A stretch of DNA of 64,000 bases, from positions 98,737-162,736 of the forward strand of contig JAQTUZ010000001.1 of assembly GCA_028707065.1 (NCBI GenBank), given 5' to 3'. Under the pieces are notes generated by a model. That model searched no databases and had not been told where the DNA came from. It was given only the letters and a program-made list of their open reading frames with translations. Within the stretch, counting starts at the first letter, position 1, and every line of letters begins with the position of its first letter. Position numbers and translations under genes: made by a program. Shown here one piece after another: positions 420-61,008 of the stretch. The DNA is from Patescibacteria group bacterium (GTDB taxonomy: Bacteria; Patescibacteriota; Patescibacteriia; Patescibacteriales; WJLG01).

Positions 420-3293
420 ATGGCAAAAGGAAAAGAAAAATTAATAATTATCGACGGGAACGCCTTGATCCATCGCAGTTTTCACGCCCTGCCGCCGACT
501 TTGCGCACCAAAGACGGGGAGCTGGTCAACGCGGTTTACGGTTTTTCGGCCGTTTTGCTCAAGGCCTGGCGCGAATTGAAACCGGATTATATCGCCCTGA
601 CTTTAGATATGAAGGGGCCGACTTTCCGGCACAAGCAATATAAGGAATATAAAGCCACGCGCATCAAGGCGCCGCAAGATTTGTATGATCAAATTCCTCG
701 CGTCAAAGAAGTGGCTACGGCTTTTAATATTCCGATTTTTGAGTTGCAAGGTTTTGAAGCCGATGATCTGATCGGCACGATCGACAAAAAAGTCGATGCG
801 AGCGTGGAAAAAATAATCGTGACCGGTGATCTGGACACTTTGCAATTGATCGACGATGACACCAAAATTTTTACCATGGGCCACGGGCTTTCGGAAAGCG
901 TGGTTTATGATGCGGCTAGAGTTAAGGAGCGCTATGGGCTTACGGTTGACCAGATGATCGATTACAAAGCTTTACGCGGCGATCCTTCGGATAATATTCC
1001 CGGCGTCAAAGGAATTGGCGAGAAAACCGCGACTAAGCTTTTGCAAGAATTTGGGACTCTAGAAAATTTATATAAAAAGCTCCAAATTTCAAATTTCAAA
1101 TTTCAAATTTCGCCGAGAGTTACAGATTTATTAATTAAACACAAGAAGGACGCTTTCTTGTCGAAAGAACTCGCTACGATCAGATTGGACGTGCCGATAA
1201 AATTTGATTTGGAAAAATGCCGGGCTTATGATTTTGACCGGGAAAAAGTGGCGGGAATTTTCAGCGAGCTGGGTTTTAAGTCGCTTTTGCCGCGAGTGCA
1301 GGATTTGGTTTCCGCCCATTTTAAAGTTTCGGATAAATCCGGCTACGCCAAGGCTACGGCGGATAAATTTGAACGCGATCGCACCGAATTTAAATATATT
1401 TTAGTTGATGACGATAAAAAATTCGCTAAATTTTTGGCCGCGTTAAGCAAACAGAAACAATTTACGATTGATACGGAAACGACCGGATTTGACCCGTTAT
1501 TGGAGAATCTGCTTGGCATCAGTTTTTCTTGGCGTGAAAGCGAGGCTTATTTTATTGTCGCAAATAAGTCCCCTCTTGAGAGGGGTGGACGGCCCCTGGC
1601 CGGACAGGGTGTGTTAAAGGTGGTGAGCCAAAGTAGTCTATTTAAGGATGATAAAAAGGAAAGTACGGAGAAAAATAATCATCCGTGGCTGGAAAAATTG
1701 AAATCAATCTTGGAAGATGAGAAAATAAAAAAATGCGGGCATAATATTAAATTCGATCTGCGGGTGCTGCGCCATGCCGGGATTGAGATGAAAGGGATCG
1801 AGTTTGATACGATGGTCGCCTCATATTTATTAAATCCAGGCACTAGAGCGCATAATTTGGACGCGGTGACTTTTGCCGAGCTGGGCTTGGAAAAGATCAG
1901 CACCGAAGATCTGCTCGGATCGGGCAAAGACAAAAAAACTTTTGCCGCGGTCGAAACGGAAAAATTGGCGATTTATTCCTGCGAGGACGCCGATTGCACC
2001 AACCGGCTGGTGGCAAAATTGGCCAAGCATTTGCGCGATAAGGAATTAAGCAAACTTTTCGAGGAGATTGAAATGCCGCTGGTTTCAGTTTTGGCCACCA
2101 TGGAAGATAATGGTGTTATGATCGATAAAGATTTTTTGGCGGCCATGGATAAAAAAATTGCCAAAAAAATATCAACGCTGGAAAAAAAGATCTGGGATTT
2201 GGGCGGCGGCGAGTTTAACATTAATTCCACCCAGCAGTTGAAAGAAGTCTTATTTGAGAAATTAAATATTTCCACCGCCGGGATCGGCCATACCAAGACC
2301 GGTTATTCCACGGCCGCCGATGAATTGGAAAAATTAAAGCACGAGCACGAAATAATTCCGCTGATCCAGGAATATCGCGAACTGGCCAAATTGCAATCTA
2401 CTTATATTTTAGCTTTGCCGACTTTGATCAATCCCGTAACCGGCCGCGTCCATACCAGCTTCAATCAAACCGTCACCGCCACCGGCAGGCTTTCTTCGTC
2501 TGATCCGAATTTGCAGAATATCCCGATCCGCACCGAGCTGGGCCAGGAAATCCGCCATGCTTTTATCGCCCAGCCGGGCTGGAAAATAGTTTCGCTCGAC
2601 TATTCCCAGATTGAATTGCGCCTGGCCGCTCATTTATCCGGCGACCAAAGAATGATCGATACTTTTGAGCGCAGTTTGGATATTCATACTTCCACGGCCG
2701 CTGCGATCAATAATGTAAAGATTGAAGACGTTACCAAAAAAATGCGCCAGGAAGCCAAGGCAATCAATTTTGGAATTTTATACGGCCAGGGCGCGTATGG
2801 CTTATCGCAAAATACCGATATGCCGCTAAATCGCGCCAAGGAATTTATTGAGCATTATTTTGATCTCTATAAAAATATTAAAACTTATACCGAAGATATG
2901 GTAGAGTTTGCCCGTAAGAACGGCTACGTGGAAACATTATTCGGCCGTCGCCGCTATCTGCCCGAAATCACTTCGCAAGTGGCGCCGGTTCGCGCCGCGG
3001 CCGAGCGCATGGCCGTCAACACGCCCCTGCAAGGCACGAATGCCGATATGATCAAAAAAGCAATGATCTCGGCGCAAAATTTAATTGATGAAAAATATTC
3101 TGATAGTGTGAAGATGATCATTCAAGTCCATGACGAATTGGTTTTTGAGATGCGTGAAGACAAAATGAAAGAAGCCGCCGGCCGGATTCAGGACATCATG
3201 CGCGACATTCTGAAATTAAAAGTCCCGGTAGTGGTGGATATTGAGATCGGGGAGAGTTGGGGAGAGATGAATCGGCTCGAAAACAAAAAGTAA
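420..3293 (+). CDS. polA: DNA polymerase I (5' nuclease, 3'-5' exonuclease-like, polymerase domains)
   Basis: 957 aa; N-terminal LIIIDGNALIHRSFHAL 5' nuclease, FTIDTETTG exo motif, polymerase motifs DYSQIELR, KAINFGILYG, QVHDELVFE. Confidence 0.95.
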   Translation: MAKGKEKLIIIDGNALIHRSFHALPPTLRTKDGELVNAVYGFSAVLLKAWRELKPDYIALTLDMKGPTFRHKQYKEYKATRIKAPQDLYDQIPRVKEVATAFNIPIFELQGFEADDLIGTIDKKVDASVEKIIVTGDLDTLQLIDDDTKIFTMGHGLSESVVYDAARVKERYGLTVDQMIDYKALRGDPSDNIPGVKGIGEKTATKLLQEFGTLENLYKKLQISNFKFQISPRVTDLLIKHKKDAFLSKELATIRLDVPIKFDLEKCRAYDFDREKVAGIFSELGFKSLLPRVQDLVSAHFKVSDKSGYAKATADKFERDRTEFKYILVDDDKKFAKFLAALSKQKQFTIDTETTGFDPLLENLLGISFSWRESEAYFIVANKSPLERGGRPLAGQGVLKVVSQSSLFKDDKKESTEKNNHPWLEKLKSILEDEKIKKCGHNIKFDLRVLRHAGIEMKGIEFDTMVASYLLNPGTRAHNLDAVTFAELGLEKISTEDLLGSGKDKKTFAAVETEKLAIYSCEDADCTNRLVAKLAKHLRDKELSKLFEEIEMPLVSVLATMEDNGVMIDKDFLAAMDKKIAKKISTLEKKIWDLGGGEFNINSTQQLKEVLFEKLNISTAGIGHTKTGYSTAADELEKLKHEHEIIPLIQEYRELAKLQSTYILALPTLINPVTGRVHTSFNQTVTATGRLSSSDPNLQNIPIRTELGQEIRHAFIAQPGWKIVSLDYSQIELRLAAHLSGDQRMIDTFERSLDIHTSTAAAINNVKIEDVTKKMRQEAKAINFGILYGQGAYGLSQNTDMPLNRAKEFIEHYFDLYKNIKTYTEDMVEFARKNGYVETLFGRRRYLPEITSQVAPVRAAAERMAVNTPLQGTNADMIKKAMISAQNLIDEKYSDSVKMIIQVHDELVFEMREDKMKEAAGRIQDIMRDILKLKVPVVVDIEIGESWGEMNRLENKK
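1083..1110 (+). repeat. (CAAATTT)x4 heptamer tract inside polA
   Basis: Four perfect tandem heptamers read in frame as QISNFKFQIS. Confidence 0.85.
1331..1368 (+). repeat. 22-nt GC-rich insert flanked by 8-nt direct repeat GGATAAAT inside polA
   Basis: GGATAAAT-CCGGCTACGCCAAGGCTACGGC-GGATAAAT; 30 nt extra in total, giving DK-SGYAKATA-DK in frame. Confidence 0.6.
1569..1618 (+). repeat. family A GC-rich hairpin element, in frame in polA
   Basis: TCCCCTCTTGAGAGGGGTG + GGCCCCTGGCC hairpin + GGGTGTGTTAAA; peptide SPLERGGRPLAGQGVLK. Confidence 0.8.
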
Positions 3294-3373
3294 TAAGTAA
3301 AAAGTAAAAAAAGTAAGAAGTCAGGAGATAGAAGCTAGAAATTTTTAAAGTTATAAAGTTGAAAGTGGAAAAT

Positions 3374-3440
3374 TCCCCTCTTGGGAGGGGTGCCGAGCCC
3401 GCTTGTCCGCCTCGGGCGCGGGCGAGGCGGGGTGGGTTTA
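3374..3440 (+). repeat. family A GC-rich hairpin element, intergenic
   Basis: TCCCCTCTTGGGAGGGGTG + CCGCCTCG...CGAGGCGG hairpin + GGGTGGGTTTA downstream of polA. Confidence 0.75.
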
Positions 3441-3533
3441 TTCCCGACATTATTATTGTTAAATTGCTAAATTGTTTTTTTAAAATAAAAAAGTCCTTGG
3501 AAAAAATTCCCAAGAGCTTTTATTTCGACGCGG

Positions 3534-3935
3534 TTAAACTTTACAAAATTTATGACAGATGACGGTAAAAATTATCAATGAAAGCAGTGAAAGAACGATG
3601 CCTGGCCAGGGCTTGAAGAATGAAAAAAACATCATTAGCACTATTGAACTGGAAGCCATTAGCAGCTCCATGACAAATAGCAATAACGCGAACATTAAGA
3701 TTGCTCCGCCTATCACTGCTTCTTGCCATGAATTAACGTATATTATTAGTTTAGGTAGAATTGCGCAAGCCGCAAGCAGCATTAACGTTATTATCACCAC
3801 GACAGGGGCGGAATTGACAGGAATTAGGATAATAGAGTTTGAAAAACGATCAAAAACATGAAAATAATCGACTGCTTGAGCAAGACCAAAAAAAATCGCC
3901 ACGGTCGTTAATGCCAGAATGACCACTTGTTTCAT
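3534..3935 (-). CDS. small integral membrane protein (about 4 TM segments)
   Basis: 133 aa, strongly hydrophobic segments; the opposite-strand ORF 3559-3861 looks like a shadow. Confidence 0.55.
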   Translation of the reverse strand: MKQVVILALTTVAIFFGLAQAVDYFHVFDRFSNSIILIPVNSAPVVVIITLMLLAACAILPKLIIYVNSWQEAVIGGAILMFALLLFVMELLMASSSIVLMMFFSFFKPWPGIVLSLLSLIIFTVICHKFCKV

Positions 3936-4024
3936 TATAAACCTCCAGGTTTAAATTTATTTCCGTTATTTTGTTTTAGAGAGCAACGTTAAAGATTAGC
4001 ATTTTTTATATTTTTTGTCAATAA

Positions 4025-5659
4025 TTGTCAATGAAAATCGTTAAAAATATCTTAAAATCGTTGAATAACAGGAAAATCGCCATGCTCGGGCTGGGGGTGG
4101 AAAATTTGGCGTTGGTGAAATATTTGTTACGCCGCAGTCCCGCGGCGGAGACTGCGGCGGGGCAAGGTTTGCACATTACCGTTTGTGATCCAAAGTCGGC
4201 GGCGGAATTGGGCGACAGATATTTGGAAATCAAGCAGCTGGCGAAGAAGAATAAATTGCCGGAAATAATTCTGATGACCGGCAAGAATTATGACGCGCAT
4301 CTGGCGGATTTTGACATTATTTTCCGTTCGCCCGGCTATCCGCTGTTCAATCCGAATTTGCTCAAAGCGAAAAAGGCCGGCGTGATAATTTCCAGCCCGA
4401 TGAAATTATTTTTTGAATTGTGTCCGACGAAAAATATCATCGGCGTCACCGGCTCGAAAGGTAAAGGCACGACTTCGTCGCTGATTTATGAAATTTTAAA
4501 AAAAGCCACAACCACCCCCGGAACCACCCCCAAACCCCTCCTTCGAAAGGAGGGGAGAGTTTGGCTGGGTGGAAATATCGGCAATGCGCCGTTTGAATTT
4601 ATCGAGAAAATAAAGCCGAAGGATTTCGTGGTTTTGGAATTATCCAGTTTTCAATTGGAAGATTTGGATGTGAGTCCGCATATTGCCGTGGTCACGAATT
4701 TATTCAAAGAACATTTGGCTCCGGCCGATCCGAACAATCCGAATTATCATCGGTCAATGAAAGATTATTGGGCGGCGAAAGCGAATATTTTCTCGCACCA
4801 GCAAAAAAATGATTATTTGGTTATAAATGAAAAATTGAAAAACAAAATTCCCCTCTCGAGAGGGGTGGCCGCGCCGCGCGGACGGGGTGTGTTAAATGGC
4901 GGCACAAAAGTAATCTTTTGTTCTAGCTCTGCTTTGCCAAGTAATTTGATTGGGGCGCATAACAAAGAAAACTTGGCGGCGGCCGAGGCGGTGGCGAAAA
5001 TTTTGAAGATCAAGCCGGAAATCGTGGCGCGGGCGGTGAAAAATTTCCAGGGCTTGCCGCATCGGCTCGAATTTGTGGCTGAAATTAACGGCGTCAGATA
5101 TTTTGATGATAGCTTTGCGACCGTGCCCGATGTTTCGGTAATCGCGCTTAAAGCGGTCGGCGGAAAGTCCCCTCTCGAGAGGCCCACCTACGCTAAAGCT
5201 CCGGTAGGGCAAGGGTGGCCAACCTTAAAAGAGATAGCTTGTCCAACGAAGCTCCGCCGCGGAGCGAAGTTGGAGGGTGTGTTAAAGTTGGGTGGTAGTA
5301 AAAGCGAGATTGCTTCGCGAGGCGCTCGCAATGACAAAAATATAATATTGTTGGCCGGCGGCGCGGACAAAGGTTCGGATTTTAAAAAATTCGCCCAAGA
5401 AATAACCAAGCGCGTAAAATATTTAATTTTATTCAAAGGCAAAGGGACGGATAGATTGAAGAAAGAATTACAAATTACAAATTACAAATTTCCGATCATT
5501 GCAGTTGACACTATGAAAAAAGCTGTGGAAATTGCCAGACGAGAGGCGGAGTTGGGCGACGTTATCCTGCTTTCCACCGGTTGCGCCAGCTTCGGCTGTT
5601 TTAAAAATTATAAAGAACGAGGTGACTTTTTCAAGGAGGAGACGCTAAAAAACAAATAA
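4025..5659 (+). CDS. murD: UDP-N-acetylmuramoylalanine--D-glutamate ligase with several repeat-derived insertions
   Basis: 544 aa; Mur ligase P-loop GVTGSKGKGTT, GGNIGNAPFEF, HRLEFV, LLAGGADKGSDF; extra segments match dispersed repeats. Confidence 0.9.
   Translation: MSMKIVKNILKSLNNRKIAMLGLGVENLALVKYLLRRSPAAETAAGQGLHITVCDPKSAAELGDRYLEIKQLAKKNKLPEIILMTGKNYDAHLADFDIIFRSPGYPLFNPNLLKAKKAGVIISSPMKLFFELCPTKNIIGVTGSKGKGTTSSLIYEILKKATTTPGTTPKPLLRKEGRVWLGGNIGNAPFEFIEKIKPKDFVVLELSSFQLEDLDVSPHIAVVTNLFKEHLAPADPNNPNYHRSMKDYWAAKANIFSHQQKNDYLVINEKLKNKIPLSRGVAAPRGRGVLNGGTKVIFCSSSALPSNLIGAHNKENLAAAEAVAKILKIKPEIVARAVKNFQGLPHRLEFVAEINGVRYFDDSFATVPDVSVIALKAVGGKSPLERPTYAKAPVGQGWPTLKEIACPTKLRRGAKLEGVLKLGGSKSEIASRGARNDKNIILLAGGADKGSDFKKFAQEITKRVKYLILFKGKGTDRLKKELQITNYKFPIIAVDTMKKAVEIARREAELGDVILLSTGCASFGCFKNYKERGDFFKEETLKNK
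4511..4555 (+). repeat. family B element (with a 9-nt partial duplication), in frame in murD
   Basis: ACCACCCCCgga-ACCACCCCCAAACCCCTCCTTCGAAAGGAGGGG; peptide TTPGTTPKPLLRKEG right after the P-loop. Confidence 0.85.
4849..4896 (+). repeat. family A element, in frame in murD
   Basis: TCCCCTCTCGAGAGGGGTG-GCCGCGCCGCGCGGAC-GGGGTGTGTTAAA; peptide IPLSRGVAAPRGRGVLN. Confidence 0.85.
5168..5285 (+). repeat. long-A element (about 118 nt), in frame in murD
   Basis: Collinear with the intergenic copy at 60891-61008, about 85 percent identical by eye; shared GCTCCGCCGCGGAGC hairpin. Confidence 0.85.
5307..5339 (-). repeat. family C hairpin (ATTGC/GCAAT variant), in frame in murD
   Basis: Reverse complement reads TTTTGTCATTGCGAGCGCCTCGCGAAGCAATCT, collinear with TTTTGTCATCCTGAGCGCCGCGCGAAGGATCT at 10466. 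Confidence 0.75.
5467..5491 (+). repeat. (ATTACAA)x3 heptamer tract inside murD
   Basis: Tandem heptamers read in frame as LQITNYKF. Confidence 0.8.
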
Positions 5660-5682
5660 GTTGGCGATTAAGTATTAAAAAA

Positions 5683-5711
5683 CGCCCGGCCGTTTGCGCG
5701 GCGGGCGATTT
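5683..5711. terminator. bidirectional GC hairpin between convergent genes
   Basis: CGCCCG...CGGGCG stem; A-run on the + side gives a T-run for the minus-strand gene. Confidence 0.55.
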
Positions 5712-7849: not shown

Positions 7850-7888
7850 GAATTTATAATTTATAATTTTTAATTTGTAATTGAAAAA

Positions 7889-8866: not shown

Positions 8867-8912
8867 CACGCAGCACATAGCACGTAACAAAATTTTTTAA
8901 ATCGATTGTTAT

Positions 8913-10463
8913 GTGTTATGTGTTATGTGTTATATTATTTTTTTATCTATATTTTTAATTCTGTTTTCTGTTTTGGCCTGGCGTCGGCTTGATTGGGCGG
9001 TAATGCTGATTATCGCCGGATTGCCTTTATATTTGGTCAGATTTAAGGTATGGTCGATACCAATGACGCTTTTAGAAGCGATGATCTTGATCGCTTTTTT
9101 TTGTTGGATTATTTTTAAAACAAAATTTTGGGATTTTTTACGAGGGAAATATAAAATTAAAGATTTTTTAAAAAATAGTCCGTGGAATAAAAAGGGCAGC
9201 GCGGAGGGGCGAAGAAGATATCCTTTCGGCATCGAAATAATTTTACTTTTGATCATTTCGTTTGCCGCCGTGGGCGTGGCGCATTTTTCCGCAACATCTT
9301 TGGGGCTTTGGAAGGCCTATTTTTTTGAGCCGATCTTGCTGTACATTCTGATCTTGAATATATTTCAGGAGTCCCCCCTCCTTTCTAAGGAGGGGTTTGG
9401 GGGTGGTTATAGTGGCGTTAATAAAATCGGCTTGAGTCTGGCCGTTGGCGCCTTGATCGTTTCTTCTTATGCTATCTTCCAAAAGTTCACCGGTTTCGGC
9501 ATTGATAATCCGCTCTGGGCGGCCGAAACAACGCGCCGGGTGGTTTCATTTTTCGGCTATCCCAACGCGGTAGGTTTGTATCTTGGGCCGGTCATTCCGG
9601 TTTTAACCGCCTTTTTATTTTTGCCGCCCAAGAAAGATTTTTCTCCGCTCGAGAAAAAAATTCATTATCCTCTTCCCGAAGAAAAAATTTCCGCGATTAG
9701 TTTGTCAAAAGGTTTTTTAGGGTTTATTATCGTTTTGTCATTAGCGGCGGTTTATTTTGCCAAATCGGACGGAGCGCTGATTGGCTTGGCCGTTGCCGCT
9801 TTTATTTTTTGTTTGTTTATTAATAAAAAAGCGCGGATCGCGGTTCTGGCCGTTGTCGTGATCGCCGCGATCGGAATTTATTTTTATCCGCCGATTGCCA
9901 AGCCGCTCGAGAGAAAAATAACCATCGAAGATTTTTCCGGACAGGTGCGCCGCTTGCAATGGAAGGAAACCTTAATGATGCTTAACGGGGAGAAGAAGAT
10001 TTGGGGGATCGGCCTGGGGAATTTTCAGCAAGCGGTTGCGCCCTATCATCAGCCGGGATTTTTTTATGATGACGGCACTGATCCTTTATTCCACCAGCAC
10101 ACGGTTGAAAGCGCCGCCGTTCGCGCCCGCACCTGGCAGCCGGTGGAAATATATCTGTATCCGCACAATATCATTTTAAATTTTTGGGTAGAATTAGGCT
10201 TGGCTGGGCTATTTTTATTTGTTTGGATTTTCGGCAAAACAATTTATCTTTTATCATCTATCGTTTATCATTTTAAGGCGAAAAAAGATAAAACAAGTTT
10301 ATTTTTAGCCTTAGGCTTGCTATCCGCAATAATTGTTATTATCGTCCATGGTCTGGTCGATGTCCCTTATTTTAAGAACGATCTATCTTGTATTTTTTGG
10401 ATTTTAGTGGCAATATTGGTTTTGTTGGATTTGAGAAATAAAGATAAACGAATTGAATGTTGA
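8913..10463 (+). CDS. O-antigen ligase / Wzy-like polytopic membrane protein
   Basis: 516 aa, more than 10 TM helices with a large loop (YPHNIILNFWVELG type motif); contains a family B repeat. Confidence 0.55.
   Translation: MLCVMCYIIFLSIFLILFSVLAWRRLDWAVMLIIAGLPLYLVRFKVWSIPMTLLEAMILIAFFCWIIFKTKFWDFLRGKYKIKDFLKNSPWNKKGSAEGRRRYPFGIEIILLLIISFAAVGVAHFSATSLGLWKAYFFEPILLYILILNIFQESPLLSKEGFGGGYSGVNKIGLSLAVGALIVSSYAIFQKFTGFGIDNPLWAAETTRRVVSFFGYPNAVGLYLGPVIPVLTAFLFLPPKKDFSPLEKKIHYPLPEEKISAISLSKGFLGFIIVLSLAAVYFAKSDGALIGLAVAAFIFCLFINKKARIAVLAVVVIAAIGIYFYPPIAKPLERKITIEDFSGQVRRLQWKETLMMLNGEKKIWGIGLGNFQQAVAPYHQPGFFYDDGTDPLFHQHTVESAAVRARTWQPVEIYLYPHNIILNFWVELGLAGLFLFVWIFGKTIYLLSSIVYHFKAKKDKTSLFLALGLLSAIIVIIVHGLVDVPYFKNDLSCIFWILVAILVLLDLRNKDKRIEC
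9375..9407 (-). repeat. family B element (inverted orientation), in frame in the Wzy-like gene
   Basis: Reverse complement ACCACCCCCAAACCCCTCCTTAGAAAGGAGGGG differs at 1 nt from 4523-4555; peptide SPLLSKEGFGGG. Confidence 0.85.
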
Positions 10464-10465
10464 AT

Positions 10466-10623
10466 TTTTGTCATCCTGAGCGCCGCGCGAAGGATCTATT
10501 GTCCGAGAAAAATATCAAAATATCATTAAATATTAGAATCGATATGGCGATAAAAATTTTGGAAACGGAAATTTAACCTTCCTGCAATATAGATCCTTCG
10601 TCTCACGACTCAGGATGACAAAA
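10466..10623. mobile_element. MITE-like element with family C terminal inverted repeats
   Basis: TTTTGTCATCCTGAG..GAAGGATCTAT at the left, its reverse complement at the right, about 85 nt AT-rich core, no ORF. Confidence 0.65.
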
Positions 10624-10629
10624 TAATTT

Positions 10630-10723
10630 GGAGATGTGCCAGAGTGGTCGCCCGCTACGTCGGCCTTTGGCCGCGAGCGGGTCCGCGCACGCCGCCATCG
10701 GGCGGCGATGTCGCGGAAATGGG
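10630..10723 (+). pseudogene. duplicated 5' part of tRNA-Ser interrupted in the D-loop by a family E element
   Basis: GGAGATGTGCCAGAGTGGTCG [67 nt] AATGGG versus intact GGAGAGGTGCCAGAGTGGTCGAATGGG at 10980. Confidence 0.7.
10651..10717 (+). repeat. family E GC-rich double-hairpin element
   Basis: CCCGCTACGTCGGCC..GGCCGCGAGCGGGTCCGCGCA..ATGTCGCGGA; a reverse-complement copy lies at 15234-15297. Confidence 0.85.
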
Positions 10724-10729
10724 ATTATT

Positions 10730-10975
10730 ATGTATTATGTTTATTTTATAAAAAGTTTTAAAAATGGGAGTTTGTATATTGGATCAACGGAAGATTTAAG
10801 AAAAAGACTGGCGGAACATAACGCGGGAAGAACCCAATCAACCAAACCATTTTGTCCCTGGGGAGTTGTATATTATGAGGCTCATTTGAGTAAGGAATTA
10901 GCCAGACGAGCGGAAATATTTTATAAGACTGGGCAAGGGCGAAGACAAGTAAAGAAAAAATTAGGAATTGAATAA
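10730..10975 (+). CDS. GIY-YIG nuclease family protein
   Basis: MYYVYFIKS..GSLYIGSTEDLRKRLAEHN is a GIY-YIG core; start moved from 10628 to the in-frame ATG 10730 because upstream codons are tRNA fragment plus repeat. Confidence 0.8.
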   Translation: MYYVYFIKSFKNGSLYIGSTEDLRKRLAEHNAGRTQSTKPFCPWGVVYYEAHLSKELARRAEIFYKTGQGRRQVKKKLGIE

Positions 10976-10979
10976 TTTT

Positions 10980-11066
10980 GGAGAGGTGCCAGAGTGGTCG
11001 AATGGGCTTGACTCGAAATCAAGTGTGTTCGCAAGAATACCGAGGGTTCGAATCCCTCCCTCTCCG
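10980..11066 (+). tRNA. tRNA-Ser (anticodon CGA)
   Basis: Hand-folded cloverleaf: acceptor GGAGAGG/CCTCTCC, anticodon arm CTTGA-CTCGAAA-TCAAG, long variable arm, T-loop TTCGAAT. Confidence 0.9.
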
Positions 11067-11108
11067 CTAGAAAATTTAAATTACATTGCTAAAATGTAAA
11101 ATAACCTT

Positions 11109-11426
11109 ATGGGTTTATTAGATTTTTTATCAGAAATTTTTGATGGAAATTCCAGTAGAGAAAATAAAACATATATTGATGAAAACGGTTATAGAAGGTT
11201 TTCAGACTCCGATAAATTAGTAAGCCGTTGGATAGTTGAGAAAAAATTAGGCAGGAGACTTAATCAGGACGAAGAGGTTCACCACAGAGACAGAAACAAG
11301 TTAAATAATCGCCCAGGCAATCTCGAAGCCCTAACTCCTGAGGAGCATAACAGAGAACATGGACTTCCAGATGATTATAATTTAGATTATGATAATGATC
11401 TTGATGATTATGACGATGACTTTTAG
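11109..11426 (+). CDS. HNH endonuclease with acidic C-terminal tail
   Basis: EEVHHRDRNKLNNRPGNLEALTPEEHNREH is an HNH motif. Confidence 0.8.
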   Translation: MGLLDFLSEIFDGNSSRENKTYIDENGYRRFSDSDKLVSRWIVEKKLGRRLNQDEEVHHRDRNKLNNRPGNLEALTPEEHNREHGLPDDYNLDYDNDLDDYDDDF

Positions 11427-14229: not shown

Positions 14230-14241
14230 CAGAATTACGTT

Positions 14242-14297
14242 GAAATTCTCGGAGCGAAGCGGAGACCCCGCTGGATAGCGGGGCCAGTACCCCGACA
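14242..14297 (+). pseudogene. tRNA-Pro-like 3' fragment with the T-loop replaced by a GC hairpin
   Basis: TTCTCGG [31 nt incl. CCCCGCtggataGCGGGG] CCAGTACCCCGACA versus intact TTCTGGGTTCAAATCCCAGTACCCCGACCA. Confidence 0.55.
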
Positions 14298-14346
14298 GGA
14301 TCAATTAACAATTAAAAATTAAAAATGAGGAATTATTGTTTATTGA

Positions 14347-14411
14347 GGGTAATTAGCTCAGTTGGTTATCCGCCCCAGGCGGACCCGCCTTGGGCGGGGA
14401 GCGCTACACCC
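14347..14411 (+). pseudogene. tRNA-Val-like 5' fragment with a 31-nt double hairpin in the D-loop
   Basis: GGGTAATTAGCTCAGTTGGTTA [TCCGCCccaGGCGGA CCCGCCttgGGCGGGg] AGCGCTACA, then no 3' half. Confidence 0.6.
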
Positions 14412-14447
14412 TTAAGCAAATAAAAAGTTTTTAAAACTAGAACACAG

Positions 14448-15008: not shown

Positions 15009-15134
15009 CTACATCAATTAAAAATTAAAAATGCAAAATTAAAAATATTTTAATTGACACGCAAATATTTATATTGTAAGGTAAATTCATTAATTGAATT
15101 TTTAACTTTTCACTTTTAATTTTTAATTGATTTT

Positions 15135-15211: not shown

Positions 15212-15218
15212 TTTTCAC

Positions 15219-15317
15219 GAGAGTTCTGGGGTTTCCGCGACATTCCGCCATGGGCGGATGCGCGGACCCGCTCGCGGCCCCTGGCCGACGTAGCGGGCAA
15301 GTCCCAGTACCCCGACA
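15219..15317 (+). pseudogene. duplicated 3' part of tRNA-Pro(CGG) with a family E element in the T-loop
   Basis: GAGAGTTCTGGGGTT [64 nt] AAGTCCCAGTACCCCGACA, starting 7 nt after the intact tRNA. Confidence 0.7.
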
Positions 15318-15321
15318 AATA

Positions 15322-20794: not shown

Positions 20795-20830
20795 TCATCC
20801 CGATCCCGCCCTAGCGGGAGAGGGATCCCT
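20795..20830 (+). repeat. family C hairpin (ATCCC/GGGAT variant)
   Basis: TCATCCCGATCCCGCCCTAGCGGGAGAGGGATCC, collinear with the reverse complement of 38241-38280. Confidence 0.7.
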
Positions 20831-34557: not shown

Positions 34558-35823
34558 ATGGCTCTGGTAAATAAAACTATTTTTGTCTTAGCATTTTTAG
34601 CGTTGTTTTTTTCGGCACGGCAAGTTTTGGCGGCCGATAATATCAAGACAACGGAATTTTATATTTATGATTCGGCTCTGCCGGTCAGTTCGGCGGTCAG
34701 CCAGGATTTTTCCGTCTATATCGGCGATAATATCGGCGCGGTAACCGATCCGATCAAATCCGCTTACTTCAAGATTTCCGGAACTTATACCGGCGGCGGC
34801 ACGCTTGATTTGAAGATTAATTCCGGGAATTCCAAAATTTATAACTTGCCAACGGTCGGCAGCCCGACTTATTTCGAATTGCTTTATGCCGATACTTCCT
34901 CGGTCATTGATCCTTCCAGCGCGGGAAATTATAGTTATAATTTCAGCCTGACTCCTGATAGCGTCACTATTTACGGCCTGGGAGTGAAACTGGATCTGAC
35001 TTACCAATATCAGCCGGCCTTTTGTCCGGACGGCTCGAGCCAAAAAGTTAAGACCACGGAATTTTACGTTTACGACTCTGATTCAGTTATCAATCCCGAC
35101 TCTAACATAAGCCAGGATTTCCCCGTTTATATCGGCGATAATATCGGCGCGGTAACCGATCCGATCAAGTCCGCTTACTTCAAAGTTTCCGGAACTTATA
35201 CCGGCGGCGGAAGCATAAATTTCACTCTTAATTCGGGCAATTCCCAGATTTACAATTTGCCGTCAGCGGTCAGCCCGACGTATTTTGAATTGCTTTACGC
35301 TGACACTTCGGCGATGATCGCTCCTGGCTCGGCGGGAACTTATTATTTTAATCTGGGCATCAACCCGACCGGCGTGACGATCTATGGCGCGGGAGCGGCG
35401 CTGGACCTGACTTATCAATATGCTCCGCCTTCTTGCGCTGGCTTGCCGCCGACCGGAGAATTGACTTCAGCTATTTTCGATACGATTCAAACCGCGGCGT
35501 ATAATTCGATTATGTGGCAAGGGACGTTCAACGGCGGCAATGGCCGGGTGCGCTTCAAGTTGGCGACTTCCAACAGTTCGAGCGGGCCGTGGAATCCGGA
35601 GAATTTTTTCGGCAGTTCAGACAATGGCGTAACCTGCGACAATGTCTCTTGGTATGATCCGGGCGCGCCAGAAACGCCGATCGAAATAACTTGCGCTCCG
35701 GCCAATCATAATAATCAGCGTTATTTCCGCTATAAAGTCCAGCTTTGTTCCTATAGTAATTGCACGGATTCGGGGAGTGCCAGCCCGGAAGTAAATAAAG
35801 TTATCGTTAATTGGAGCCCATGA
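34558..35823 (+). CDS. secreted protein with a tandem 135-aa repeat
   Basis: Signal peptide; two repeats starting TTEFY(I/V)YDS and ending LDLTYQY.P. Confidence 0.7.
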   Translation: MALVNKTIFVLAFLALFFSARQVLAADNIKTTEFYIYDSALPVSSAVSQDFSVYIGDNIGAVTDPIKSAYFKISGTYTGGGTLDLKINSGNSKIYNLPTVGSPTYFELLYADTSSVIDPSSAGNYSYNFSLTPDSVTIYGLGVKLDLTYQYQPAFCPDGSSQKVKTTEFYVYDSDSVINPDSNISQDFPVYIGDNIGAVTDPIKSAYFKVSGTYTGGGSINFTLNSGNSQIYNLPSAVSPTYFELLYADTSAMIAPGSAGTYYFNLGINPTGVTIYGAGAALDLTYQYAPPSCAGLPPTGELTSAIFDTIQTAAYNSIMWQGTFNGGNGRVRFKLATSNSSSGPWNPENFFGSSDNGVTCDNVSWYDPGAPETPIEITCAPANHNNQRYFRYKVQLCSYSNCTDSGSASPEVNKVIVNWSP

Positions 35824-38240: not shown

Positions 38241-38280
38241 GATAGATCCCTCACCCGCCGGGGCGGGCTCGGGATGAAAA
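38241..38280 (-). repeat. family C hairpin (ATCCC/GGGAT variant)
   Basis: Reverse complement TTTTCATCCCGAGCCCGCCCCGGCGGGTGAGGGATCTATC. Confidence 0.7.
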
Positions 38281-40668: not shown

Positions 40669-40802
40669 TTTCTTTCTGGCCATGGCAGAGTCTCCCTCCG
40701 CCAGTCGGTGTATCGGGGACTCTGCCTGAATTGGCCGGATTCAGCCTCGCCGCAGTCTTCCCTCGGCAAACTCGGGACAAGCCGCCGCGGGACTGCGGCG
40801 TA
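40669..40802 (+). other. GC-rich structured intergenic block (two homologous long hairpins plus a small one)
   Basis: GGCAGAGTC...GACTCTGCC, TGAATtggccggATTCA, GCCGCAGTC...GACTGCGGC. Confidence 0.5.
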
Positions 40803-40813
40803 ATTGTGTCAAT

Positions 40814-44622: not shown

Positions 44623-44669
44623 ATTATTAAAATCTTTGCCACTTTTTTTAGAAAAAGTGGCGCATACAA

Positions 44670-44702
44670 ACCACCCCCAGACCCCTCCTTGGAAAGGAGG
44701 GG
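44670..44702 (+). repeat. family B element, intergenic
   Basis: ACCACCCCCAGACCCCTCCTTGGAAAGGAGGGG. Confidence 0.8.
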
Positions 44703-44783
44703 AGGCGCGCAGGCCTTATTTCCTATCACTCCGCTAGTCCCGCTGCGGATTTGAATTACGCAAACAGCAGTAAAAATAAATAG

Positions 44784-51293: not shown

Positions 51294-51557
51294 ATGGTAT
51301 TAAGCAAGACATTTAATGCTTTGTCCGATCCGAGCCGGCAAAAAATATTGGAATTATTGAAGAAGGGCGATCTGGCGGCCGGAGCGATCGGCGAATATTT
51401 TAAATTCACGGCCCCGACCTTGTCGCATCACCTGGGCGTGCTTAAGGATGCCGACTTGATTTCGGTGCGCCGCGACGGGCAGATGCAGATCTATTCGCTG
51501 AACTTGTCGGTCTTTGAAGAGGTAGCCGAGAAGGTTATAAAATTTTTTAAGAAATAA
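51294..51557 (+). CDS. ArsR/SmtB family transcriptional regulator (SdpR-like)
   Basis: 87 aa; LSDPSRQKILELL...TLSHHLGVLKDADLI winged helix. Confidence 0.85.
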   Translation: MVLSKTFNALSDPSRQKILELLKKGDLAAGAIGEYFKFTAPTLSHHLGVLKDADLISVRRDGQMQIYSLNLSVFEEVAEKVIKFFKK

Positions 51558-51565
51558 ATTAGCGT

Positions 51566-51661
51566 ATTAGTTGATTAGTTAATTGGTTAATTAGTTTACG
51601 ATTTAATAGGCAAAAATCATTAACCCATTCAACCAATTAACTAATTAACCAATTAACTAAT
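51566..51661. repeat. family F AT-rich hairpin ending at a start codon
   Basis: 31-nt arms of TTAGTTAATTGGTTAA-type sequence, 27 of 31 complementary, 34-nt loop; the right arm ends 1 nt before ATG 51662. Confidence 0.75.
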
Positions 51662-52321
51662 ATGAATCCCATCAAACTAACAATCAAATCCGAACTATTT
51701 TCCATCCTGCTGATCGCGATCTCTATCGCCGCCTCGTTTTATTTTTACGCGCATTTTCCCGACCGGGTGATAACTCATTGGGATTTCGCCGGCGAGCCGA
51801 ACGGCTGGAGCGGCCGCGCTTTTGCCGCTTTTTTCTTTCCCGCGCTGTTTATCGCCATGTATCTGTTATTTATTTTTTTACCGATGCTTGATCCCAAAAA
51901 GGACCGTTATGCCGAATTCGCCAAAATTTATAATGTTTTTCGAAATCTGATTCTGGCGGTTTTGGTGGTTGTTTATTTTGTCGCCTCATTCAATAATTTA
52001 GGCGTAAATTCCAACGTCGGGCTTTGGGTTCCCGGAGTGATCGGCCTGTTGTTCATTGTTTTAGGCAACTATCTGGGAAAGATCAAGCGGAATTGGTTCG
52101 TCGGCATCCGCACTCCCTGGACCATGTCCTCCGAGACAGTCTGGAATAAAACTCACCGTTTCGGCGGCAAGGTTTTTATTTTCGGCGGCGTTTTAATGAT
52201 CATCACCGGTTTCGCGCCGCTCTCCTGGCGCTTGCCAATATTCATCGCCGATATTATCATATTATTATTCGGAACCATCATATATTCGTACTTGGTTTAT
52301 CGCAAGGAAAAGAAAAAATAA
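51662..52321 (+). CDS. SdpI/YhfL family membrane protein (DUF1648 plus SdpI domains)
   Basis: FPDRVITHWDFAGEPNGW and WFVGIRTPWTMSSETVWNKTHRFGG motifs. Confidence 0.7.
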   Translation: MNPIKLTIKSELFSILLIAISIAASFYFYAHFPDRVITHWDFAGEPNGWSGRAFAAFFFPALFIAMYLLFIFLPMLDPKKDRYAEFAKIYNVFRNLILAVLVVVYFVASFNNLGVNSNVGLWVPGVIGLLFIVLGNYLGKIKRNWFVGIRTPWTMSSETVWNKTHRFGGKVFIFGGVLMIITGFAPLSWRLPIFIADIIILLFGTIIYSYLVYRKEKKK

Positions 52322-52381: not shown

Positions 52382-53197
52382 ATGCTCGATGATTTTATGT
52401 CTTTCTTCATCGATAGCGCCGACAATCCGAAAATAAAAAATATCCTCAAATTGCAAAGGCCCCACGAGCGCAAAAAGCAGGGGGTAGTTTTGGTTGAGGG
52501 CTATAAAGAAATTCTGGCCGCACTCAAGGCCGGTTTGAATTTGGTGGAAATTTTTTATTGCGCGACTTATGGCGGAGAAAATCCTTCTTTTTTCGGCGTG
52601 GACAAAGACAAAAAATTAATCGCCAATGTTTCGCGGGAAGTTTTTGAAAAAATCACTTATCGCGAAAAGCCCGATGGCTACATCGCGATTTTTTTGGCTC
52701 GAAATTTAAAACTCTCTGATGTAAAATTAAGCGCGGCGCCGCTGGTTCTGGTGATCGAGGGCGCGGAAAAGCCCGGCAATTTCGGAGCGATCCTGCGCAC
52801 CGCTGATGCGGCCGGAGTCGATGTGGTCATAGCCAATGATCCGCAATTGGATATCTATCATCCCAACGCCATCCGCGCGAGCATTGGCGCGGCTTTTGAC
52901 AAGCAGATCGCCATCGCCACCCGCGAAGAAACGATCGCCTGGTTAGCTGAAAATAATATTACGACTTACGCCACTTCTAAGCGCGCCACCAAAGTCTATG
53001 TTGATTTTGATTATACTCAAGGCACGGCTTTTATTTTGGGCGCCGAACATGCCGGCTTAAGCGAAGAATGGAAAGATTCGGCTGACGAATTCATCACCAT
53101 CCCGATGACCGGTATCGTCGATTCGCTCAATCTTTCCGTCAGCGCCGGCATCTTGCTTTTCGAAGCTGTCCGGCAACGGAAAAAAATCCCCTCTTGA
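52382..53197 (+). CDS. SpoU/TrmH family RNA 2'-O-methyltransferase
   Basis: PGNFGAILRTADAAG, ILGAEHAGLS, IPMTGIVDSLNLSVSAGILLFE. Confidence 0.85.
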   Translation: MLDDFMSFFIDSADNPKIKNILKLQRPHERKKQGVVLVEGYKEILAALKAGLNLVEIFYCATYGGENPSFFGVDKDKKLIANVSREVFEKITYREKPDGYIAIFLARNLKLSDVKLSAAPLVLVIEGAEKPGNFGAILRTADAAGVDVVIANDPQLDIYHPNAIRASIGAAFDKQIAIATREETIAWLAENNITTYATSKRATKVYVDFDYTQGTAFILGAEHAGLSEEWKDSADEFITIPMTGIVDSLNLSVSAGILLFEAVRQRKKIPS

Positions 53198-53235
53198 GAG
53201 GGGTGGCTCGCGCCTCGCGGGACGGGGTGTGTAAA
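53187..53235 (+). repeat. family A element supplying the last codons and the stop of the TrmH-like gene
   Basis: TCCCCTCTTGAGAGGGGTG-GCTCGCGCCTCGCGGGAC-GGGGTGTGTAAA; the TGA within CTCTTGAGAGG is the stop. Confidence 0.8.
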
Positions 53236-53356
53236 TTTGACTTTTCCAGCAGTTTTTGTTAGATTAATCATAGATTATAATGGTTGCCGCGAGGCAATTT
53301 TTATTTAGATTTATCATTCAGTTTAATTTGTAATTATAAATTTGTAATTTGAACGG

Positions 53357-53512: not shown

Positions 53513-53980
53513 ATGACATGGAATTATATAGCAGGATTTTTTGACGGTGAAGGATCTTTGGTCCATCACGGGAAAGGATTTAGGGTTACTATTTCCCAGA
53601 CGAATTTTGAAGTTTTGGAATCAATTAGGACATTTTCCGGAGTTGGTTATGTTATTAAGCCAAGAAAAAGAAAAGCTCACTGGAAAGATAACTGGGTGTA
53701 TTATGTGGCCCGGCAAAAGGATGTTTATTTTTTTATGATGAAGATGAAGCCATTTTTAGTTGTTAAAAGAGATCTTTTTCTTTCGGTTGAAAATAAAATT
53801 TTAAATTTTGTAAAAAGACAGAAAGAAAAAAATATTTTTCGAGAAAGAAAGGCGAACTTGGCCGTTAGATTAAGAAATGAAGGATATAGTTATCGAGAAA
53901 TAGGAAAAAGAACGAATACTGATTTTGGACAAATAAGAAGAGTTATTTTAAAGCATGGTGGTCGTAGCTCAATTGGTTAG
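53513..53980 (+). CDS. LAGLIDADG homing endonuclease (single-motif type)
   Basis: IAGFFDGEGS motif; TATAAT box 6 nt upstream of the ATG; the last 24 nt overlap tRNA-His. Confidence 0.85.
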   Translation: MTWNYIAGFFDGEGSLVHHGKGFRVTISQTNFEVLESIRTFSGVGYVIKPRKRKAHWKDNWVYYVARQKDVYFFMMKMKPFLVVKRDLFLSVENKILNFVKRQKEKNIFRERKANLAVRLRNEGYSYREIGKRTNTDFGQIRRVILKHGGRSSIG

Positions 53981-60302: not shown

Positions 60303-60480
60303 GATTTCCGCCTTTCTGACTTAATTTATAGTTTATTGTGAATGTGCAAAAATTTGGAATATCGCCGGTACGAGTAGCGATATCTTCGGCTAATCTTATA
60401 ATAAATTAGTGGCGCGGTCAAATCGGGAATACATCGCATTTCCCGCGGTTGACAGACGCGATGAAAGCGGTAAAATCTAT

Positions 60481-60590
60481 ATTAGTTACTTAGTTAATTA
60501 GTCAATTAGTTGAATGGTTGATAAACGGATGACTTAATTTGCTAATAAACTAAAAATTTATCAACCAATTGACTAATTAACCAATCAACT
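60481..60590. repeat. family F AT-rich hairpin ending at a start codon
   Basis: TTAATTAGTCAATT..GGTTGATAAA pairs with TTTATCAACC-AATTGACTAATTAA; the right arm ends at ATG 60591. Confidence 0.7.
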
Positions 60591-60887
60591 ATGTCTTATC
60601 AAGAACATATCGAAGTAGTGGAGGGGAAGCAGCCGAAGAGCAAAATCATGCTTTACGGCTTAAGCACTTGCATGTGGTGCGAAAAAGCCAAAGAACTTTT
60701 GGACGAACTGGGAATTGCTTACAGCCATCTGACGGTTGATCAACTGGAGGGCGCCGATCAGGATGAAGCTTATGAATTGGTTTCCAAATATAATCCTGAC
60801 CAATCTTTCCCGACAATTGTTTTGGACGACGGCAAAAGAGTGATCATCGGTTTTAGCGAAGACGAATTGCGAGCTTTGGCCGCATAA
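60591..60887 (+). CDS. glutaredoxin-like (thioredoxin-fold) protein
   Basis: 98 aa; CMWC active site, then FPTIVLDDGKRVIIGF. Confidence 0.75.
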   Translation: MSYQEHIEVVEGKQPKSKIMLYGLSTCMWCEKAKELLDELGIAYSHLTVDQLEGADQDEAYELVSKYNPDQSFPTIVLDDGKRVIIGFSEDELRALAA

Positions 60888-60890
60888 TAT

Positions 60891-61008
60891 TCCCCTCCCC
60901 AGGAGGCCCGCCTCCGCTAAAGCTGCGGCAGGGCAAGGGTGGCTCATCTTGAAAAAGATAGCTTGCCCAGCGAAGCTCCGCCGCGGAGCGAAGTTGGGGG
61001 GTGGGTTT
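60891..61008 (+). repeat. long-A element, intergenic copy
   Basis: Collinear with 5168-5285 in murD. Confidence 0.85.

Follow-up and report, generated by a model that had tools for sequence, protein, structure and literature searches.

The murD locus and its product

The 64,000-nt stretch analysed here (the window; positions 98,737 to 162,736 of the forward strand of contig JAQTUZ010000001.1, GenBank assembly GCA_028707065.1) belongs to a metagenome-assembled genome (MAG) of a Patescibacteria group bacterium, has a G+C content of ~45% and carries most of its genes on the plus strand. Near its left end lies murD, the gene for an essential cell-wall enzyme, within the gene order polA - murD - GH1 - EamA - Wzy_C, which is kept in related assemblies. 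The subject of this study is a set of short GC-rich repeat elements that lie in frame within murD and recur elsewhere in the window. The coding sequence and the repeat features inside it are as follows:

murD coding sequence, 4025..5659, plus strand: 544 aa from TTG at 4025, 542 aa from ATG at 4031
Element F, 4127..4165, plus strand: GC-rich hairpin with a 10-bp stem (CGCCGCAGTC/GACTGCGGCG), encoding RRSPAAETAAGQG (residues ~35-47)
Element B, 4508..4558, plus strand: hairpin CCCCTCCTTCGAAAGGAGGGG with a 12-nt internal duplication at 4510-4536 (Tandem Repeats Finder, TRF), encoding TTTPGTTPKPLLRKEG
Element A, short form, 4847..4897, plus strand: 5' hairpin CCCCTCTCGAGAGGGG, variable second hairpin and 3' GGGGTGTGTTAAAT, encoding IPLSRGVAAPRGRGVLN (residues ~275-291)
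Long-A element, 5168..5286, plus strand: 119 nt with A-type ends and a large structured interior, encoding SPLERPTYAKAPVGQGWPTLKEIACPTKLRRGAKLEGVLK
C-type 3' half, 5305..5340, plus strand: GAGATTGCTTCGCGAGGCGCTCGCAATGACAAAAAT, the right terminal inverted repeat of a small element resembling a MITE (miniature transposable element with inverted repeats), encoding EIASRGARNDKN
Heptamer tract, 5466..5490, plus strand: (AATTACA)x3.6, TRF 100% matches, encoding QITNYKF

The 542-aa form that starts at ATG 4031 is identical to database protein P0001 of a Patescibacteria MAG. The Pfam domains MurD-like_N, Mur_ligase_M and Mur_ligase_C were all matched and MurD is complete, and the closest solved structures of the product are those of MurD (3LK7, E = 4.6e-43, HMMER). 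An AlphaFold2 model built from 85 homologues comprises ~35 helices and strands in all and has a mean predicted local distance difference test score (pLDDT) of 84.8 and a predicted TM score (pTM) of 0.83; in Foldseek, the modelled core superposes on MurD crystal structures with a target-normalised TM score of up to 0.77. The residues that are invariant among the 85 homologues are all retained (P-loop G143/K145/G146/K147/T149, E205, H230, K252, R347, D362 and K449). In addition, comparison with six orthologues gave a ratio of non-synonymous to synonymous divergence (dN/dS) of 0.10-0.17 at a dS of 1.0-1.5, which shows that the core is under purifying selection. Since the invariant residues are kept and dN/dS is 0.10-0.17, murD bears no pseudogene signs, and it is predicted to be a functional gene that is not decaying.

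Repeat elements inside murD

Repeat copies were located by self-BLAST, repeat finding and inspection of the window. An original prediction, made from the sequence of the window, had claimed that murD contains, with no break in the frame, five repeat copies, namely elements B, A, long-A and C and the heptamer tract. The first four stood up and the gene is free of pseudogene signs, but the heptamer tract is a native segment of the enzyme (see below); the fifth copy is element F (4127-4165), which had been missed and was found by a hairpin scan (fold of -25.1 kcal/mol). Several families are stacked in the one gene, as had been proposed, with five GC-rich elements from five families.

Two orthologues served as references for a codon alignment: that of L003, which is insert-free (449 aa), and that of L001, the closest relative (468 aa). 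In this alignment the inserts are clean in-frame indels, and the extra codons relative to L003 amount to ~8 for F, 14 for B, 12 for A (12 also relative to L001) and 57 for long-A plus C, which agrees with the about 60 residues expected from the last two together. Examples of sequences that span insert junctions are KIPLSRGVAAPR and GKSPLERPTYAK. The HMMER alignment to 3LK7 has a 10-residue gap at TTPGTTPKPL and leaves ~60 residues unaligned between residues 367 and 433, and these breaks coincide exactly with the places where inserts had been predicted. In the AlphaFold2 model, every insert sits between a helix and a strand at the periphery:

Element F, residues ~41-50: block-mean pLDDT 65, between helix 25-37 and strand 50-55
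Element B, residues 161-180: block-mean pLDDT 71-72, between helix 147-163 and strand 179-183; its peptide (residues 162-177) lies between the helix after the P-loop and the following strand
Element A, residues 281-290: block-mean pLDDT 63, between helix 269-274 and strand 287-290
Long-A plus C, residues 382-435: pLDDT <50, between helix 368-378 and strand 440-445

The low-confidence stretches of the model are these inserts, apart from residues 231-240 (block-mean pLDDT 63), a non-insert loop (LAPADPNNPNYH) that is kept across the clade. The positions between secondary-structure elements and the low pLDDT bear out the prediction that the inserts occupy surface loops.

The murD copies match DNA elsewhere in the window and in related lineages. 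By self-BLAST, element B is 97% identical to 9375-9408 (minus strand) and 94% identical to 44669-44704. Long-A is 88% identical over 101 nt to the intergenic stretch 60903-61003 and is absent in L001 and L003. The C half matches the terminal inverted repeat of 10456-10623 (10464-10492, minus strand) at 86% over 29 nt, a weak match (E 0.04); its identity is confirmed by L005 and L207, which carry a whole C element (TGTCATTGCGAG ... CTCGCAATGACA) at that murD site, with the shared half 87-96% identical. Element F is common to the murD genes of L001 and L209 at 88-93% identity, and the same variant of element A is found at the same site in L006 and L207, with 93-95% identity over the 60 nt compared.

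Copies of the same families elsewhere in the window

The window holds 15 GC-rich copies, seven of which lie within coding sequences, one at the end of a coding sequence and seven in intergenic DNA. Five of the 15 fall in murD, which makes up 2.6% of the window (binomial P = 2.6e-5). The copies outside murD are:

Element A in polA (open reading frame (ORF) 420..3293), 1566..1619, plus strand: encodes SPLERGGRPLAGQGVLK, in another frame than the murD copy
A-type element, intergenic, downstream of polA, 3371..3440, plus strand: fold of -40.7 kcal/mol
Element B, reverse, in frame in the Wzy_C gene (8913..10463), 9372..9408, minus strand: encodes SPLLSKEGFGGG
Complete C-type MITE-like element, intergenic, 10456..10623, no strand assigned: 168 nt, ~34-nt terminal inverted repeats (TTTTGTCATCCTGAG...), fold of -56.5 kcal/mol
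C-type 3' half, intergenic, 20795..20830, minus strand: by inspection against the C ends of L005 and L210
C-type 3' half, intergenic, 38241..38280, plus strand: ATAGATCCCTC...CTCGGGATGAAAA, by inspection against L005 and L210
F-type element, intergenic, 40747..40806, plus strand: 10-bp stem as in the murD copy (match 40750-40803)
Element B, intergenic, 44669..44704, plus strand: 47 nt downstream of an ABC transporter gene
Element A at the SpoU methylase gene's 3' end (gene 52382..53197), 53187..53236, plus strand: gives the last codons and the TGA stop
Long-A element, intergenic, 60891..61008, plus strand: directly after a glutaredoxin gene

Each of the families A, B, C, F and long-A has copies both in murD and in intergenic DNA, and the noncoding copies that had been predicted (3374-3440, 44670-44702, 60891-61008, 10466-10623, 20795-20830 and 38241-38280) were all recovered by self-BLAST or inspection. 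The census of coding against intergenic copies in the window likewise fits DNA-level repeats, in that both kinds occur in both orientations and in at least two forward reading frames. About half of the copies in the 64 kb are intragenic, and the intergenic ones lie mostly at gene 3' ends. All seven coding copies keep the frame and contain no stops. In polA, element A adds 12 codons relative to L001 and L003, and L005 carries the same variant at the same site with 2 differences in 51 nt. The B copy in the Wzy_C gene (O-antigen ligase family, Pfam Wzy_C) also adds 12 codons relative to L001 and L003, and the stop codon of the SpoU rRNA methylase gene sits in the loop of the 5' hairpin of element A (CTCT-TGA-GAG). 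Taken together, these results suggest, with a probability of about 0.8, that the ~95 extra residues of this MurD derive from short GC-rich hairpin-forming dispersed repeats of the repetitive extragenic palindromic (REP) or MITE type, which belong to several related families.

Insertion hot spots among murD orthologues

We compared 28 murD orthologues, which are 425-574 aa long and 66-80% identical in shared columns. Their length differences all map to five positions, where at least 18 insert types occur, and each of these hot spots holds several unrelated types (3-5 or more per site). The spread of 425-574 aa among orthologues is one of repeat DNA, not of new domains. The shortest orthologues are without inserts at sites 1, 2 and 5, and the tract at site 6 is present in all; sites 3 and 6 vary in length also among more distant MurD proteins. 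The orthologue DNA was read for nine of these genes, in which there were zero internal stops and all copies were in frame.

Presence/absence polymorphism, which had been expected in sister genomes, is extensive. Sister genomes differ at 3-4 murD hot spots, and the murD alleles of a sister pair each recur in a non-sister lineage. In L005, THPVSRGASHPSQEG is family A read in reverse orientation, and the peptides FCHSEPLARN...ARDDK and CHCEE...RRGN...EIASRGARNDK in orthologues are whole C-type elements. Elements also adjoin each other at these sites: at site 3 of L006 murD a short C-like hairpin (GGGATTGCTTCGCCCAAGGCTCGCAAC) stands directly after element A, and at site 1 of L209 murD an A-reverse element stands directly after element F. 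A search of close genomes for recent events gave the pairs L003/L004 (99.995% identical without gaps) and L001/L002 (100% identical), which are therefore uninformative on recent insertion. Among the murD matches listed for GTDB species representatives, the nearest were ~55% identical and had no murD inserts. The in-frame indels, the low pLDDT and this polymorphism uphold the earlier claim that the murD inserts are DNA-level repeats tolerated as loops, in the manner of Rickettsia palindromic elements (RPEs), for all but the heptamer tract, to which it does not apply.

Make-up and spread of the element families

The elements have a G+C content of 48-74% (56-74% without the short C half) compared to ~45% for the window, fold with minimum free energies of -10.6 to -57.5 kcal/mol and perfect stems of 8-10 bp, and are stop-free in most of six frames. 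In family A, the second hairpin is hypervariable and stands between two conserved modules, aAdT-CCCCTCTYGAGAGGGG-TG on the 5' side and GGGGTGTGT on the 3' side. The ends of family A read aAdT-CCCCTC... and ...GGGGTGTGT, and those of family B read ACCACCCCC... and ...GGAGGGG. Family B (ACCACCCCC plus CCCCTCC-loop-GGAGGGG) looks like a reversed A-type element without the second hairpin.

An exact pattern for family A matched at least 120 metagenome contigs, with contig G+C of 0.32-0.70. Among the matches listed, 149 distinct copies have 115 different middle segments that still form hairpins, with a mean longest stem of 4.7 bp compared to 3.1 bp after shuffling. Another element hexamer lies within 40 nt of 40% of family A copies, compared to 5% of control pieces. 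Family A pairs are arranged head-to-head and inverted with a spacer of ~20-25 nt in many contigs (including L095, L113, L114 and L131), and tandem family A arrays are also present in metagenome contigs. In L202 the loop of a B-type hairpin seems to contain a nested family A copy, and A adjoins B in L119 and L148. Copies in frame within genes of these contigs are:

Alanyl-tRNA synthetase, L118 (about 4392-4594): at least four stacked elements in frame, splitting the Pfam catalytic domain
Methionyl-tRNA synthetase, L119: A-reverse plus B in frame
GT9 glycosyltransferase, L138: family A in frame
Type IX secretion system (T9SS) C-terminal sorting domains, L099 and L161: family A in frame

The T9SS domains presumably point to Bacteroidota-like hosts. 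Among 80 named genome loci (1.25 Mb), A- or C-type motifs were found only in two Patescibacteria, L008 and L010, and a plasmid collection gave no match to the family A consensus. The families are therefore widespread but patchy, with family A copies metagenome-wide and yet hits in 2/80 named loci and no plasmids. The G+C range of the contigs and the T9SS-domain hosts suggest that family A reaches beyond this lineage into unrelated uncultured bacteria and may have spread across phyla. Rfam at gathering threshold reported only tRNAs in the window, and a permissive scan of 1500-5700 (E up to 5) gave chance-level matches only.

A target-site duplication of family A was considered and rejected: in the window, AAAK on both sides of three coding copies resembled a 4-nt duplication, yet the last flank base matches in only 6/12 TTAAA-tailed copies. 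According to the profile of the flanks, aAdT belongs to the family A element itself. No clear flanking duplication was seen around the C-type element at 10456-10623, and no related insertion sequence was found in the window.

Heptamer tracts

The window contains seven perfect period-7 tracts (1083-1111, 5466-5490, 7851-7869, 8907-8933, 14310-14326, 15016-15032 and 60186-60202). No such tract was found for periods 4-6 or 8-12, and shuffled sequence gave 0.14. Three of the seven are intragenic, in polA, in murD and in a dihydroorotate dehydrogenase-like gene; the polA tract, (CAAATTT)x4.1 at 1083..1111 on the plus strand (TRF), encodes QISNFKFQIS. Heptamer microsatellites are over-represented in bacteria, mainly in intergenic DNA (PMC4692102). 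The murD tract aligns with a native segment of S. agalactiae MurD and has a block-mean pLDDT of 94-97. It is not an added loop, because the segment is native to all MurD proteins and is confidently modelled.

A tract stands at the murD position in 9/9 orthologues read, with a period of 7 or 14 and a differing unit (AATTACA, GTTAYGR, AAATCTC, CAAATTT, CGTTAYG, AAAAAWT or AAATACG, plus one of period 14). In polA, the unit is CAAATTT x4 in the window and L005, CAAATTC x4 in L001 and TTAAGAA x4.5 in L003. Across the orthologous tracts (L001, L003, L005 and L207-L210), position and perfect periodicity are kept and the unit is changed, and these unit changes look like concerted turnover inside essential genes.

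Elements and tracts also coincide in position. The site-6 heptamer tract of murD encloses a GC hairpin in L005 and L208. The empty polA A site is a heptamer tract in L003 (ATTAAGA x5), and the empty murD site 3 is one in L003, L208 and L209 (AAAAAKA x4). Heptamer tracts were rejected as a general landing pad of family A: the flanks of 146 metagenome copies gave no lag-7 signal (0.272 vs 0.262), and a heptamer tract stood beside family A in 2/297 flanks of metagenome copies. The association of elements with heptamers is supported within this clade only.

Conservation and mosaic distribution of the elements

Over seven orthologous element pairs from different lineages, 11 of 300 nt differ (~96% identity; P = 8e-24 vs ~25% core divergence, with 40-49% expected from third codon positions), whereas the overall identity of the murD and polA cores is 73-80% and that of their third codon positions 51-62%. 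The boundaries are sharp, as identity stops within 1-4 codons of the element ends. The second hairpin of orthologous copies is identical or one base apart, despite 115 variants across the family; a second hairpin that is specific to the site across lineages indicates that these copies are orthologous alleles and did not arise by separate transpositions of family members drawn at random. At the amino-acid level, PolA is 88% identical between the window and L001 and 89% identical between L003 and L005, with ~74-75% between the pairs. The polA element A is nevertheless found in the window and in L005 and is absent from their respective sisters L001 and L003.

Homologous recombination tracts were examined as a source of this pattern. 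The 15-codon flanks of element sharers are only ~1-2.5 standard deviations more similar than those of other pairs, and part of this excess stems from element-derived codons. Because the flanks are only mildly similar and identity ends within 1-4 codons, classical homologous recombination is not supported; very short conversion patches may account for the mosaic sharing. It is possible that there is either strong nucleotide-level selection with precise repeated loss, or spread of young alleles between lineages into the same site. More tentatively, and with the odds against it, the elements might be site-specific cassettes that are exchanged in frame, with precise ends, at heptamer-marked loop hot spots between Patescibacteria lineages. 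If true, this would mean dedicated targeting or homing for mobile DNA of <120 nt, or nucleotide selection on the elements that exceeds that on an essential enzyme. The original prediction was thus incomplete: hot-spot re-use, conservation of the elements above that of the host gene and the spread of family A were unforeseen, and there are coding copies outside murD, in polA, the Wzy_C gene and the SpoU gene.

Proposed mechanism and alternatives

The elements populate intergenic spacers, mostly at gene 3' ends, and also land in coding DNA, where we propose that survival in essential genes would need the frame to be kept, an absence of stops and a harmless loop position. Their palindromic G/C-rich design is mostly stop-free in both orientations, and one element therefore reads PLSRGV or SPLERG forward and THP...HPSQEG in reverse. 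Surviving copies would be transcribed and translated as disordered surface loops. New copies would favour older elements, next to or within which they settle, and heptamer tracts too in this clade; such an insertion preference together with structural tolerance would lead to a few hot spots that are re-used across lineages. There is moderate support for hot-spot re-use from copy preference atop structural tolerance. The mobilising activity would act in trans.

Several points weigh against a derivation of the extra MurD residues from mobile repeats of this kind. By Pfam, none of the 60 window ORFs has a transposase, a Y1_Tnp or a REP-associated tyrosine transposase (RAYT) domain, and mobility is therefore deduced only from the distribution of the elements. 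No target-site duplication is demonstrable, with the last flank base of family A agreeing in 6/12 copies by inspection, and translation of the inserts is judged from the preserved frame only. Finally, selfish decaying insertions do not predict sharply bounded elements of ~96% identity within a host gene whose core differs by ~25% and whose synonymous sites are saturated.

The last point would be met if the elements were under nucleotide-level selection, for instance because they serve as a structured mRNA module or as a site of binding or processing, or were young alleles spread by homing-like or short-patch conversion, both of which are compatible with a selfish origin. We regard this as possible, though the less probable outcome. 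It accords with 11 differences in 300 nt between element pairs while dS is 1.0-1.5, with the confinement of identity to the elements within 1-4 codons of their ends, and with the mosaic distribution, in which not only the polA element but also the E, A, A-reverse and C alleles are common to non-sisters. The second hairpin is free across the family yet near-identical between orthologues, which speaks for recency rather than structural constraint alone, and GIY-YIG, HNH and LAGLIDADG endonuclease ORFs occur in the window. However, these ORFs have no demonstrated link to the elements, the elements have no Rfam match, and the flanks of element-sharing lineages are only mildly above background similarity. 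In addition, the MurD tree is nearly star-like, and lineage sorting could explain some of the apparent homoplasy; assembler graph simplification could also wipe out a few differences between repeat copies. A second question is whether the hot spots are only the few tolerant loops of MurD, reached by random insertion and a selection filter without any target preference. In that case one would expect what is seen in the model, where the five sites are all peripheral and flanked by secondary-structure elements, and the variable length of sites 3 and 6 in remoter MurD proteins too. We find this doubtful, since the inserts of the 28 orthologues are at five sites only, though ~35 helices and strands give many more loops, and since family A in unrelated contigs lies near or inside other elements at eight times the control rate. 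The GC hairpins inside the site-6 heptamer tracts of L005 and L208, and the heptamer tracts at the empty murD site 3 and the empty polA A site, also argue for a preference.

Removal of the inserts before translation or in its course, be it in the manner of introns or by a bypass like that of mitochondrial 'byp' elements, is highly improbable, although the byp elements too are GC-rich hairpins in an AT-richer gene. The frame and stop-freedom are kept in 7/7 window coding copies and in all copies of the nine orthologues, which would be needless if the inserts were skipped. Moreover, one element is used in differing frames and orientations, Rfam gave no ribozyme or intron match, and a length of 36-119 nt is below group I or II intron size. 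Still less credible is that the inserts are native low-complexity loops or assembly artefacts whose likeness to intergenic DNA is coincidental. Their peptides contain much Pro, Gly, Arg and Ser, as do many disordered linkers, but the coding-intergenic matches extend over 34-101 nt at 88-97% identity in both orientations, and the same elements stand at the same sites in independent assemblies (NCBI, ENA, JGI and Logan). As far as sequence data can refute it, this explanation is refuted.

Comparison with known repeat systems

RPEs are dispersed palindromic repeats that occur in frame in Rickettsia housekeeping genes, according to PMC10969869, which summarises Ogata et al. 2000, 2002. The elements described here are alike in comprising several palindromic families, in being intergenic as well as in frame in unrelated housekeeping genes, in their compatibility with the protein fold and in having no mobility genes of their own, and long-A (119 nt) is within the RPE size range. 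In contrast, the host belongs to the Patescibacteria and not to the Rickettsiales, most elements are 36-50 nt long, a gene holds as many as five GC elements, different families are found in sister genomes at the same, re-used sites, and family A extends beyond one genus. RPE copies are described as old and decaying, whereas the elements here are far better conserved than the host gene. Since the host is a Patescibacteria MAG and the comparison covered behaviour, the claim is that these elements work like RPEs, not that they belong to the families RPE-1 to RPE-10.

REPs of the GTAG/CGTC type are 20-40-nt GC-rich stem-loops found mostly downstream of genes (Di Nocera et al. 2013, PMC3733652). 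Some supply stop codons or lie within known genes, including replication/repair genes; dimers are mainly of the head-to-head kind, and a gene may carry two insertions (PMC3733652). Our elements share with intragenic REPs their size, palindromy, stop codon supply, intragenic copies and stacked insertions. Inspection showed that the GTAG or CGTC tag is absent at either end of the A and B elements, and the elements are therefore not in the GTAG/CGTC REP superfamilies. They differ further in the two hairpins of family A, where a hypervariable stem is framed by 5' and 3' modules that are conserved, and in that no RAYT gene was found in the window. In the REPIN/RAYT system (Bertels and Rainey 2011, PMC3116915), the REPIN doublet resembles the inverted family A pairs of the metagenome contigs with their ~20-25-nt spacer, and REPINs are described as extragenic. 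The window copies differ in being singletons, and no associated tyrosine transposase was found in the 60 window ORFs.

The closest behavioural analogue is reportedly the small dispersed repeats (SDRs) of cyanobacteria described by Elhai et al. in 2008, hairpins of tens of nt, with no mobilising protein identified for them, that are said to insert into one another as well as into heptamer repeats. The present case differs from the SDRs and the short tandemly repeated repetitive (STRR) sequences of cyanobacteria in phylum and in sequence, and in that tracts and elements are located within essential coding sequences. MITEs that have inserted in frame, ERIC among them, are described in PMC10969869, which cites Delihas 2007. 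Like these, the C family has ~34-nt terminal inverted repeats (10456-10623 in the window; TGTCATTGCGAG/CTCGCAATGACA in L005 and L207) and lies in frame in murD orthologues as FCH[SP]E...ARDDK peptides; unlike these, families A, B and F have no terminal inverted repeats, the murD copy of the window is a 3' half only, and no parent insertion sequence was found. In the literature searched there was no link of RPE, REP or MITE to Patescibacteria, and these DNA and peptide strings were not found. Notable here are the Patescibacteria host, the five GC-rich elements from five families (A, long-A, B, C and F) that a single essential gene has stacked up, the repeated use of its hot spots and the better conservation of the elements than of their host gene.

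Other features of the window

Several tRNA genes of the window are accompanied by repeats. The first ~21 nt of tRNA-Ser (10980-11067; GGAGAGGTGCCAGAGTGGTCG) have a second copy at 10628-10650, 350 nt upstream, after which come a GC-rich repeat (10650-10698) and then a small GIY-YIG nuclease ORF (about 10721-10975). The stretch 10628-10975 looks like a small cassette at a tRNA gene with duplication of its 5' end. Downstream of tRNA-Pro(CGG), 15212-15320 holds an inverted copy of 10650-10698 (86% complementary) and then a second tRNA 3' end (CCCAGTACCCCGACA), and tRNA-Pro(GGG) is followed by a GC hairpin and then by the same tRNA-end fragment at 14266-14297 (region 14240-14300). These arrangements suggest that tRNA genes may be a further target of repeat elements, whose insertion would duplicate the gene ends. 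The stretch 14349-14420 begins like the adjacent tRNA-Val (GGGTAATTAGCTCAGTTGGTTA), is broken by a GC hairpin (TCCGCCCCAGGCGGACCCGCCTTGGGCGGGG), is without a T arm and was called by neither ARAGORN nor Rfam; it may be what is left of a tRNA after disruption by a hairpin element. HNH (11109-11426) and LAGLIDADG (53513-53980) endonuclease-like ORFs stand free beside tRNA genes, the latter overlapping the start of tRNA-His (53958). With the GIY-YIG ORF, this gives three homing-endonuclease-type genes per 64 kb.

Two arrays with a period of 8 nt (TTAGTTAA/TTGGTTAA-like), at 51557-51667 and 60472-60594, have inverted halves and are 88-90% complementary or identical to each other. Each lies directly upstream of a gene start (an SdpI-like gene at 51662 and the glutaredoxin gene at 60591), and they may be shared operator or promoter structures. 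In the type IV pilus neighbourhood, an ORF without a Pfam match (34558..35823) contains a 300-nt direct repeat (34699-34998/35110-35409) of 76% identity, so that its product is internally duplicated.

Significance

If confirmed, these results would mean that the RPE phenomenon, the most familiar peculiarity of Rickettsia genomes, in which selfish palindromic DNA is translated within housekeeping proteins, also exists in the Candidate Phyla Radiation (CPR), a very large set of uncultured bacteria, and in a denser form, as one essential gene holds five GC-rich elements. That the elements are conserved at ~96%, compared to ~75% for the core, and are distributed as a mosaic exceeds simple tolerance and points to a mobilising or homogenising mechanism for very small elements. 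The recurrent repeat peptides (SPLERG..., THP...HPSQEG and FCHxE...ARNDK) may mislead homology searches and domain calls in CPR proteins. With many independent, datable loop insertions, the origin of new protein segments would become directly testable, in a case where small repeat DNA appears to rewrite, again and again, parts of essential proteins in an uncultured, ultra-small bacterium of the CPR/Patescibacteria.

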